A stretch of DNA of 49,471 nucleotides, counting the filler, from Basidiobolus ranarum (taxonomy: Eukaryota): the NCBI GenBank assembly GCA_040143965.1. It is 2 parts of 2 records of this genome, joined end to end, with 100 filler letters (N's around TTAATTAATTAA, not from the genome) between each part and the next. Parts side by side here need not be neighbours in the genome. Positions count along the whole stretch, not along the records: positions 24,854 to 49,471 come from JASJQH010007024.1; 1 more part is not named here. One strand, 5' to 3'. Position 1 is the stretch's first letter, and each line of letters opens with the position of its first letter. The notes under the pieces were generated by a model. It did no database searches. It was not told the origin of the DNA and saw only the letters and a list, made by a program, of their open reading frames with translations. Shown here in pieces: positions 27,772 to 30,700 of the stretch. Both the position numbers and the translations under genes were made by a program.

Positions 27772-30700
27772 TCATGATGTTTTTCTTCGTTTTGAATGAC
27801 TATCACTGAATAGAAGTTCATGGTCAGAATCATCGTCTATTTCCAGCTCGAAGAGTTTGTCATCATGGTCAGGCACTTGATTGCGAGGCGGAGTTGGTGG
27901 CCATTCTGCAGTATTTAATGTAGTGAATTCCTCTTCTATTACTTGCTCAGGTGAGTTAGAAGTGGGAGTAGGCTGTCGCCGAAAACGTGAGGAGTTCTGC
28001 GAGTTGGGATCGCATTGATAATCTTCAGGGAATGAGTTGTCAACATGATCCTTCGGGCTTGAAATCTCTGGCCTAGTAATTAGATGATTCAAGCCTAACC
28101 GGTTCAAAATCACTTGTTCTGTACAATATGTATGTTAGCAATACGTGGCATAATACTTTTGATCATGGATGTTACCTTGCTTGTAATATTCCTCCTCGGG
28201 ATCTTTAGGAAACGCTGCATGAAGTGTACTTGTAGGTCCTAACAGAGCTGAGCTCTGCATCGAAGCCTCCAACAATGTCACAACTACAACAGCATCCATT
28301 ACTGTCACTTGGTTAGAAGAGCGTAAGCGAGCGTGCGCTTGAGATAGTCGAATTAAACTTTCCAACAATCGAATTGTAGTTCGAGCCGCATTACGTGAGT
28401 CGGTTTGACGTTGTGTTTGATAGTAGCGTGAGAGTACTAGCTCACTCTCGGGAGTCAGTTTGGGTTGAAAAGAAGCTTTCACGTACTGAATATAAGCCTG
28501 AAGCTTTTCCAAGTTCCACAGCCCACCTTGATGAGTACTATGGAAAACTCGGTCCTCAGTTTCTGTTTCCAAGATAAAAGAAGATACAAGCCTGGAAATA
28601 AAGGTTGCTATGTTAACATCACCATACAGTATTGACTCCGAAAAAAATCATACCGATCCCATTCGTCATTTTGTGAATCAAGTAGTACCAACACAATATC
28701 GAATCGTGATAAGAGCGGACTCGCAAGTGCCACATTAATTGATATACTTTGCTCCGGATCGTATTTTCCTTTTGGGTTTGTTGCCGCTAAAACGGAACAG
28801 CGAGTGTTGAGTTTACATACTATACCAGCTTTCGCAATAGATATGGTTTGTTGTTCCATTGCTAGATCATCAACAGTATAAGTCATCAGTATAACGAATT
28901 AATTTGAGCAATGTATACCTTCATGAATTGCTGTTTTATCGTGTTCTCTGATACTTCCAAACTCGTCAATACAGCACAACCCGCGATCGGCTAAAACTAA
29001 TGCGCCAGCCTCTAATTGCCATTCACCACCATCCTATAAAACAGCATGATTAGTTACAACATAAATTTAACAAAACCTAAGCAATGTCAACTTACTCTAA
29101 CAGCAGTGACGGTCAACCCAGCACTTGAATTAGTAATAGACAAGGAGAACATGGATTAGATTGATTTTGGTAAAAATGTTGTTGCGATTATATTTTGTTA
29201 CCTGCTGGATCCAATACCGGTGGTCAAGATTGACCGAGGTACAAGTTTAGCAGCATATTTCAAGAACTGCGATTTCCCGGTTCCTGGATCACCAACCAAT
29301 AATAAATGCGACTCTCCACGTACTTTCAAGCCGGACTTATCCACCTTTTGCACTCCTCCAATCAAAACTAGCATTACTGCCAATTTAACGATGTAAAGAC
29401 CAAACACTTGGGGACAAAAGCTAGCCAAGATATTGTTTCTTAAAGAGCAATCAGAAAACAATAAAATAAGTTAGTACCAAAGCATATTTAGCTTGGATTT
29501 ACAGAAGCCTAGTAGTACCTTCCTAAATAAACGAACTTCAGTATAACATATATGAAGTGAATAAAGTAAAACTCGCCCTCACCAGTCATAGGAGTTTCAG
29601 CATGTACGTTCCAATATGTCTCAAACTCAGCCTTCAATTCATCTGTTACTCCAACACCCATACGTTGCTCGTTGTGAATGAACACATGGTTAGCAAAGAG
29701 AACAAGCTCGATATCACATCTCTCGTTGCTGATCATATTTTTCCAACGACGCATGACAATCCCACTAAAACACAGGCTGTGAATATTCTGATAAAAGTCA
29801 ATACTAAAATTCAATAAAACCTACGTTATAGTCACATCATCGCCAGATTTGGCCAAGTCGACAAGATCATCTTTTAATACTACGACCATAGATTTGGGAA
29901 TGTAAGATTGGAGTTAAGAAAAGCTTATCACAATACTTCTGTACAAATTCGGCATGCAAGTCAATCTACAAAAAGGATATAGATCCAATGGCGAGTTTGT
30001 TTACTTGTTCTTGAATCTTAATCTCCTGGTAATCTTGGCACGATTCAGGCATATCACCTAGGCAAAGTGATACAATCAATACTTGTACATATGGCAACCC
30101 AAGGTATGATAGATAGATCTCTAGAGGTAAAATAGAACATACCAACTTGCAAGGAGACAGCATTGAATTTCGTGGAATTGCATAACACTCCTTCCGAAGG
30201 AGCCAAACATTTAAGAGGCTTCGGTACGGTGTTATATTGCTCAACATCTGATTGTACCGAAAAAACCTTTTTACATTTTCCACATTCATACTGTCTTTCA
30301 CTTTCCAACATTTTTGTAATGCCCGTACTATAATATCACATTAGTAAACGCATATTATAATGCAACATTTTTGAATACTTGCCGAATAACAGTGCCAGAA
30401 ATAGATAACAGTCGTCCGATATCCTCGGATCCAGGAATTATAGTACGGACAAGCTCTGGACAGTGAGGTAGACTGATAGAAAAGACGCTTAGAAGTATTT
30501 CTTTGAAAATATATTCGTGTATGTTATATATACCTCATAACTCTTGCATGACAATTGCTTTTTTGAGACATATGCGAGCGAAGTGAATGTGTTTTCAGAT
30601 AGTATCCTTGAACTACTTGGATGGCTTGATCAAGAATTGGCACAAATACAGTTGGATTTTGAATAAGAATATGACAAAGATCGCTATTAGATTCCAACAG

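Follow-up and report, generated by a model that had tools for sequence, protein, structure and literature searches.

A predicted U12-type AT-AC intron in the MCM9 gene of Basidiobolus ranarum

Introduction

The window analyzed here, a stretch of 49,471 nucleotides (nt) from the genome of the fungus Basidiobolus ranarum (GCA_040143965.1), carries a gene for the DNA helicase MCM9 in which an open reading frame (ORF) ends abruptly at AIGSISFL*, and the remainder of the protein is encoded in a second frame further along the same strand. This arrangement raises the question of whether the gene is broken at this site, or whether it carries an intron whose termini fall outside the GT-AG rule. A preliminary description of the locus had proposed the latter, namely that 79 nt at positions 29902-29980 form an AT-AC intron of the type removed by the minor (U12-dependent) spliceosome. 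The evidence presented below favors this proposal, and we assign a probability of roughly 0.9 to the conclusion that 29980..29902 is a genuine U12-dependent AT-AC intron, inserted in phase 0, in MCM9 of B. ranarum.

Results and discussion

The interrupted gene encodes a fungal MCM9

The gene is the fungal MCM9 of B. ranarum, a member of the MCM8/9 branch of MCM helicases. Pfam searches matched three of five exon pieces (MCM at 1.6e-22 and 2.1e-27, MCM_lid at 2.2e-20), and the two pieces to which no Pfam family was matched are both N-terminal. When a C-terminal piece of 141 amino acids (aa) was used as a protein query, 559 proteins among 1002 candidates matched at E<=0.001, and nearly all of the best 120, which were kept, are named MCM9. 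The top match is P0003, 'DNA helicase mcm9 [Basidiobolus ranarum]', which is 100% identical to residues 362-789 of our gene model, and the second is P0004 from Basidiobolus meristosporus CBS 931.73, with 90% identity to the query. The identification as fungal MCM9 in the preliminary description is therefore well founded, both in the Pfam domains and in the perfect match to the annotated B. ranarum protein.

Our gene model (Table 1) runs from a start at 30997 to a stop codon at 27774..27772, with a coding sequence of 2370 nt. Its product shares 55-60% identity with the full-length fungal MCM9 proteins P0005, P0010 and P0039 over 645-710 aligned columns. The introns of the gene are 55-85 nt long, and those of the GT-AG class have ordinary donors (GTAAGT, GTATGT, GTAGGT and similar).

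Only one excision restores the conserved block

On the minus strand, the sequence across the insert reads ...GCCATTGGATCT|ATATCCTTTTTGTAG...GCTTTTCTTAACTCCAATCTTAC|ATTCCCAAATCTATGGTC..., and the ORF at 29966..30340 enters it directly, such that the intron start ATATCCTTTTTGTAG is read as ISFL and then a stop. The second frame opens 79 bases on, directly after ...TTCTTAACTCCAATCTTAC. Removal of these 79 nt joins ...KLAIGS to the downstream block and yields a gap-free match to MCM9 orthologues.

The junction was examined by tblastn alignment of P0005 and P0010 with the window. The last homologue residue before the insert (213 in P0005, 234 in P0010) ends at 29981, and the next residue (214/235, the I of IPRS) begins at 29901, with no homologue residue missing or extra. 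The high-scoring segment pairs before the insert are printed as ending at 29978, which reflects a single chance-matched codon (ATA = I) inside the intron.

We also listed all excisions, whatever their termini, whose 5′ end falls in 30050..29931 and after which the reading frame continues unbroken into the next exon. Among the 1573 excisions of this kind, none has GT-AG termini, two are GC-AG and five are AT-AC. Only 29980..29902 retains the whole conserved block around the site, which includes L.DDLVD..K.GDDV and is nearly invariant from fungi to vertebrates. The registers that would give the same messenger RNA (mRNA) are limited to AT-AC, TA-CA and AT-AT.

The insert has the anatomy of a U12-type intron

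Introns of the U12 class have the donor (A/G)UAUCCUUU and the branch site UCCUUAAC, which is followed by 10-20 nt to the 3′ end (optimum 11-13) with no pyrimidine tract (PMC8199999). In the MCM9 insert, the 5′ splice site (A/G)TATCCTTT of the AT-AC subtype is present directly at the exon 5 boundary, and the branch motif TCCTTAAC of the class is matched at seven of eight positions by TTCTTAAC, a variant that recurs in one of the MED23 introns described below (5992..5918). The branch adenosines are located 12-13 nt from the last intron base, and the interval TCCAATCTTAC between branch site and 3′ end has no pyrimidine tract. None of the 12 other MCM9 introns carries a U12-type donor such as ATATCCTTT. 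With the junction fixed by homology, the joint occurrence of such a donor 9-mer and such a branch octamer, the latter at 8-20 nt from the 3′ end, has a probability from base composition of approximately 1.3e-8. All of the sequence features of the proposed AT-AC U12-type intron are present, its coordinates on the minus strand coincide exactly with those of the preliminary description, and only the 79-nt removal restores the conserved MCM9 block.

The insert resembles the classical AT-AC U12 introns of animals and plants in its donor, branch site, spacing and lack of a pyrimidine tract (PMC8199999), and like them it is a single U12-type intron in an old and conserved gene whose many other introns are of the U2 type. 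It differs from them in being very short, as are the other introns of this gene, and in having a T at branch position 2, a feature shared with one of the U12-type introns of MED23.

Table 1. Coordinates of the MCM9 and MED23 features along the window.
Feature	Position	Strand	Description
MCM9 gene model	27772..30997	-	14 exons, 13 introns (11 GT-AG, 1 GC-AG, 1 AT-AC); 789 aa; no internal stop
Exon 5 of MCM9	29981..30057	-	Translation of exon piece 30067..29981; tblastn; gene model
Predicted U12-type AT-AC intron of MCM9	29902..29980	-	79 nt; phase 0, after residue 252 (codons 252/253)
5′ splice-site motif ATATCCTTT	29972..29980	-	9/9 positions versus (A/G)UAUCCUUU (PMC8199999)
Branch-site motif TTCTTAAC	29913..29920	-	7/8 positions versus UCCUUAAC; then 11 nt ending AC
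Exon 6 of MCM9	29825..29901	-	Piece translates to 25 residues; tblastn; gene model
Second U12-type intron, MED23, GT-AG subtype	9764..9843	-	80 nt; GTATCCTTG ... TCCTTAAC + 15 nt ... AG
Third U12-type intron, last of MED23, GT-AG subtype	5918..5992	-	75 nt; GTATCCTTT ... TTCTTAAC + 10 nt ... AG

Two further U12-type introns reside in MED23

The window holds a second conserved gene with introns of this class. Four of ten ORF pieces matched the Pfam family Med23 (best 7.4e-29), and two introns of the GT-AG subtype in this gene carry U12-type donor and branch motifs (Table 1). For the first of them, 9843..9764, the spliced peptide is present exactly in the B. ranarum protein model P0123. For the last intron, 5992..5918, the spliced C-terminus matches the B. 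meristosporus model P0124 at 54 of 70 residues, free of gaps, and P0123 ends ...DFLYPF inside this intron and so is without the last exon.

The MED23 model of Ambispora gerdemannii (P0128) has an insert beginning RIL at the site of intron 9843..9764. Since RIL is the encoding of (C)GTATCCTT in that phase, a U12-type intron may occupy the same MED23 site in this member of the Glomeromycotina.

Public gene models fail at the AT-AC site

The preliminary description anticipated that predictors restricted to GT-AG introns would mis-model this gene, and the public proteins are in accord with that expectation. P0003 begins MLVLIGG, which corresponds to residue 362 of our model, and hence the first 361 of 789 residues are missing. 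P0004, which is 87% identical to our model and keeps the same arrangement, reads through the intron as GS-ISFLFLPEFVRPNKQESLT-LLKDD. Its residues ISF would be the phase-0 encoding of ATATCCTTY, and SLT would fit TCCTTAAC in frame. Ordinary predictors expect GT-AG termini, which accounts for public MCM9 models that are either truncated or read into the intron.

The same intron position is suggested in other MCM9 genes

Among the best 120 of the 559 protein matches, 84 MCM9 models are contiguous at the site, 32 are without this part of the protein and four are anomalous (P0004, P0009, P0048 and P0006). Three of these four read G[ST]-ISF, a translation of ATATCCTTY. They come from B. meristosporus and from two chytrids in different orders, Borealophlyctis nickersoniae (P0009, GT-ISFHYQS-VVVVLEDD) and Polychytrium aggregatum (P0048, GT-ISFCAL...). 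In the fourth, from Nowakowskiella (P0006), the upstream exon is skipped. All four of the public models that we examined at U12 AT-AC sites are broken. A further 140 MCM9 representatives comprise 78 that are contiguous, 32 that were flagged by a strict pattern but in which reading revealed just ordinary variation or short deletions, and 30 that lack the upstream anchor; ISF was found in none of the 110 that could be assessed.

Metagenome contigs were scanned with a 45-residue block, which matched 593 stretches, 158 of them relatives, and the best 80 loci were kept in a ranking that favors uninterrupted matches. Across the whole block, 71 of these 80 loci are uninterrupted, seven have GT-AG introns at nearby but different codons, and one (L072) ends at the contig end. 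The GT-AG introns lie 3-10 codons upstream of the Basidiobolus AT-AC site in L064, L066, L067, L068, L073 and L075 (three codons upstream in L068) and five codons downstream of it in L077.

The remaining locus, L069, is alone among the best 80 in having an intron at the identical codon boundary (2153..2230, 78 nt), with the form ATATCCGCT...TTCCTTGAC + 11 nt...AC. Every GT-AG or GC-AG option at this locus deletes IPRSIPVVLE, and the block is kept only by AT-AC excision. The L069 intron shares with that of Basidiobolus its phase 0, its G-x|IPRS boundary, its AT-AC termini and its ATATCC donor, and the adenosine of its branch site TTCCTTGAC is located 12 nt from the 3′ end in an intron just one nucleotide shorter. 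It differs at donor positions 7-9 (GCT versus TTT in Basidiobolus), the two introns are otherwise unrelated in sequence, and the L069 DNA has 61% G+C.

In a quick maximum-likelihood tree of 29 rows, midpoint-rooted and with opisthokonts only as its outermost rows, L069 is placed with two unnamed proteins (Shimodaira-Hasegawa-like approximate likelihood-ratio test, SH-aLRT, 99). The 14 named fungal rows together form a clade (SH-aLRT 98) that excludes L069, which lies on the Capsaspora/animal side. The tree shows that L069 and Basidiobolus are not closely related, and it supports no further conclusion.

Weighing the evidence

Several observations weigh against the interpretation of 29980..29902 as a U12-dependent intron. 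The donor octamer [AG]TATCCTT is not enriched in the window, with four copies observed against a simulated mean of 4.8. We therefore place weight on the position fixed by homology and on the co-occurrence of donor, branch site and distance. Independent support for U12 splicing nevertheless comes from the window itself: downstream of three of the four copies, each on the minus strand, lie a branch octamer and a suitable 3′ end, which define the introns of 79, 80 and 75 nt. Under loose criteria, the three complete U12 candidates observed compare with a mean of 0.276 in first-order Markov simulations, and 2 of 500 simulations reach three. Under strict criteria (T[TC]CTTAAC, intron <=150 nt) the simulated mean is 0.015 and 0 of 2000 simulations reach three, although these criteria were chosen post hoc, when the data had already been seen. 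The MCM9 branch site has one mismatch to the consensus, a T for C at position 2, which would still permit a G-U pair with U12. Beyond the intron itself, the ISF signature at this site in other species is read from protein models, not from DNA. An Rfam search of the 49-kb window gave no matches, but its scope is small and says little on minor small nuclear RNAs (snRNAs). Finally, the U4atac reported for B. meristosporus is only putative, divergent and of low confidence (PMC11347168).

A looser donor scan of the window ([AG]TATCCT, [AG]TATCTTT) returned a match at 10042 on the minus strand that reads as MED23 coding sequence (LVSS), and at the other looser matches the branch motif is absent at the right distance; all were rejected.

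AT-AC introns of the U2 type are known, and the insert could accordingly be removed by the major (U2-dependent) spliceosome or by some other non-canonical route. We consider such a route improbable. The 5′ end conforms in full to the U12 consensus (ATATCCTTT), a U12-type branch octamer lies at the expected distance from a 3′ end that lacks a pyrimidine tract, and such a donor is absent from the gene's other 12 introns. Moreover, the orthologous L069 intron keeps its U12 features though the remainder of its sequence differs. If instead the stop after AIGSISFL were real, MCM9 would be a pseudogene or truncated, and the downstream part would be a separate or decaying gene. The start of P0003 only at MLVLIGG, as if the N-terminal part lay outside the gene, fits this idea, and yet each of the 14 exons has an open frame and aligns from end to end with orthologues, the exons flanking the insert encode some of the best-conserved stretches of MCM9, and B. 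meristosporus has the same arrangement. On this evidence a dead or truncated gene is very unlikely.

A different splice giving a shorter protein has still less to recommend it. The GC-AG excisions 30039..29880 and 30039..29871 are the sole open, in-frame excisions with GT-AG or GC-AG termini, but with either of them 27-30 residues that hardly vary between fungi and vertebrates would be lost. Their donor, GCCAAG, is poor, and their length of 160-169 nt would be roughly double that of any other intron in the gene. We rejected both as highly improbable. The chance that the 79 nt represent an assembly artefact or a recent insertion appears close to negligible. The assembly is a draft, and the window consists of two short contigs joined by runs of N. 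Against an artefact, P0004 reads ISF..EFV..SLT through the homologous insert, fitting ATATCCTT and TCCTTAAC there, and an AT-AC intron occupies the same codon boundary in L069, which comes from an unrelated eukaryote.

The anatomy of the insert, the exact junction defined by homology and the lack of a GT-AG alternative are properties of the DNA that can be read directly. That the MCM9 intron is actually spliced, and depends on the minor spliceosome, we infer from this anatomy and homology together with the two U12-type introns of MED23 and the literature on the congener B. meristosporus.

Relation to published surveys of minor introns

According to published surveys, B. meristosporus has more minor introns than any other fungus: 249 (0.554%, derived from annotation) are reported by Larue and Roy 2023 (PMC10639083) and 237 by Olthof et al. 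2024 (PMC11347168). Genes for U11, U12 and U6atac are reported for this species (PMC11347168, PMC10639083), and high-confidence U11, U12 and U6atac are described from zoopagomycote and mucoromycote fungi (PMC11347168). Minor introns and snRNAs are also reported for the chytrid Spizellomyces, and Ascomycota and Basidiomycota are described as having no convincing minor introns (PMC10639083). Both surveys put Basidiobolus in Zoopagomycota (PMC10639083, PMC11347168), and the NCBI taxonomy lists B. ranarum in Basidiobolomycota.

The B. meristosporus catalogues concern the same genus and the same class of intron as the one described here. They were built from annotated introns, and P0004 reads through the MCM9 intron while P0003 omits the region. 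Because the surveys start from annotation and these models miss the intron, it is probably absent from the published B. meristosporus catalogues. No mention of B. ranarum itself was found in the available text of either survey (PMC10639083, PMC11347168), and our search of the literature on Basidiobolus minor introns returned only these two studies and their preprints.

A literature search on MCM9 with minor or U12 introns likewise found no description of a minor intron in this gene. Mouse Mcm9 shows abnormal intron retention in Zrsr2 mutants, and the intron is not called minor in the available text of that report (PMC8850803). We set aside PMC7612377 as a source for an MCM9 minor intron, as its available text merely cites an MCM9 paper. 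The MCM9 intron thus adds one member, apparently missed by annotation, to a known class, and it does so in a genus whose wealth of such introns is already on record. Since minor splicing in Basidiobolus has already been published, the finding leaves the known picture unchanged.

Other features of the window

Two further splicing features of our MCM9 model are of note. A GC-AG intron at 30382..30328 on the minus strand (CG|GCAAGT...TATAG|T, 55 nt) is the sole way to join GTVIR to TGITKML. P0004 begins (MLESERQ...) immediately downstream of this intron position, and for this reason the GC-AG intron also seems to have been missed by the predictor. The junction of PMTG to RNNILASF, as found in all homologues, would require a 4-nt exon, GAAG (29519-29522, minus strand), between GT-AG introns 29582..29523 (60 nt) and 29518..29439 (80 nt). 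If the 60 nt were instead kept in frame, they would create a 20-residue insert that is found in no homologue.

Runs of N at 24754-24797 and 24810-24853 separate two parts of the window, 24753 and 24618 bases in length, which are also the lengths on record for the contigs of P0123 and P0003. The window accordingly combines two contigs of a draft assembly, and MED23 and MCM9 may lie apart in the genome. Toward the end of the first contig, an ORF at 22430-23398 on the minus strand matches the Ty1/copia-type reverse transcriptase family (Pfam RVT_2, 1.1e-45), and two copies of the motif AAGAAATAA|GTATCCTG lie at 22526 and 24329 on the plus strand. These two copies may be the repeated ends of a Ty1/copia-type element.

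Pfam searches of long ORFs in 12953-49471 indicate genes that are ordinary nuclear ones by appearance, including those for WDR3/UTP12 (31.6-34.3 kb, plus strand), two C2H2 zinc-finger proteins, a Pho80-type cyclin, a mitochondrial carrier, an F-box protein, a Sel1-repeat protein, a Rad17-like protein and a RabGAP-TBC protein. None of these genes codes for a component of the minor spliceosome.

A model for MCM9 expression and its implications

If the intron is processed as proposed, U11 would pair with the ATATCCTTT 5′ splice site, U12 would pair with the branch site TTCTTAAC, located 12-13 nt before the terminal AC, and U6atac/U5 would then catalyse intron removal. Only the 79-nt excision would yield an mRNA for the conserved oligonucleotide/oligosaccharide-binding (OB) fold block together with the downstream AAA+ helicase, and translation of a transcript that retains the intron would stop four codons in. 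B. ranarum would consequently be expected to have a working minor spliceosome, given three intact U12-type introns in two conserved genes (MCM9 and MED23), the U11, U12 and U6atac genes of its congener and the 237-249 minor introns counted there.

A broader proposal can be offered only tentatively, at slightly short of even odds. The AT-AC intron of MCM9 may be ancient, dating at least to the common ancestor of fungi and the L069 lineage, and may have been kept in Basidiobolus and some chytrids while being lost or replaced elsewhere. As part of the same proposal, such introns would be systematically mis-annotated in early-diverging fungi, and published counts of minor introns that rely on annotation would for that reason be underestimates. 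If this is true, the presence of three U12-type introns within 49 kb would agree with a density that exceeds the 0.55% reported in the literature.

For the gene itself, the outcome is a concrete and checkable correction of the MCM9 models in two Basidiobolus genomes. The MCM9 models of Borealophlyctis and Polychytrium probably also need correction, and perhaps that of Nowakowskiella. The position shared with a non-fungal MCM9 provides one data point on the conservation and loss of minor introns. More generally, in fungal lineages that keep the minor spliceosome, predictors bound to GT-AG termini lose AT-AC introns along with whole halves of genes, and surveys based on such annotation would miss AT-AC introns like the one in MCM9.

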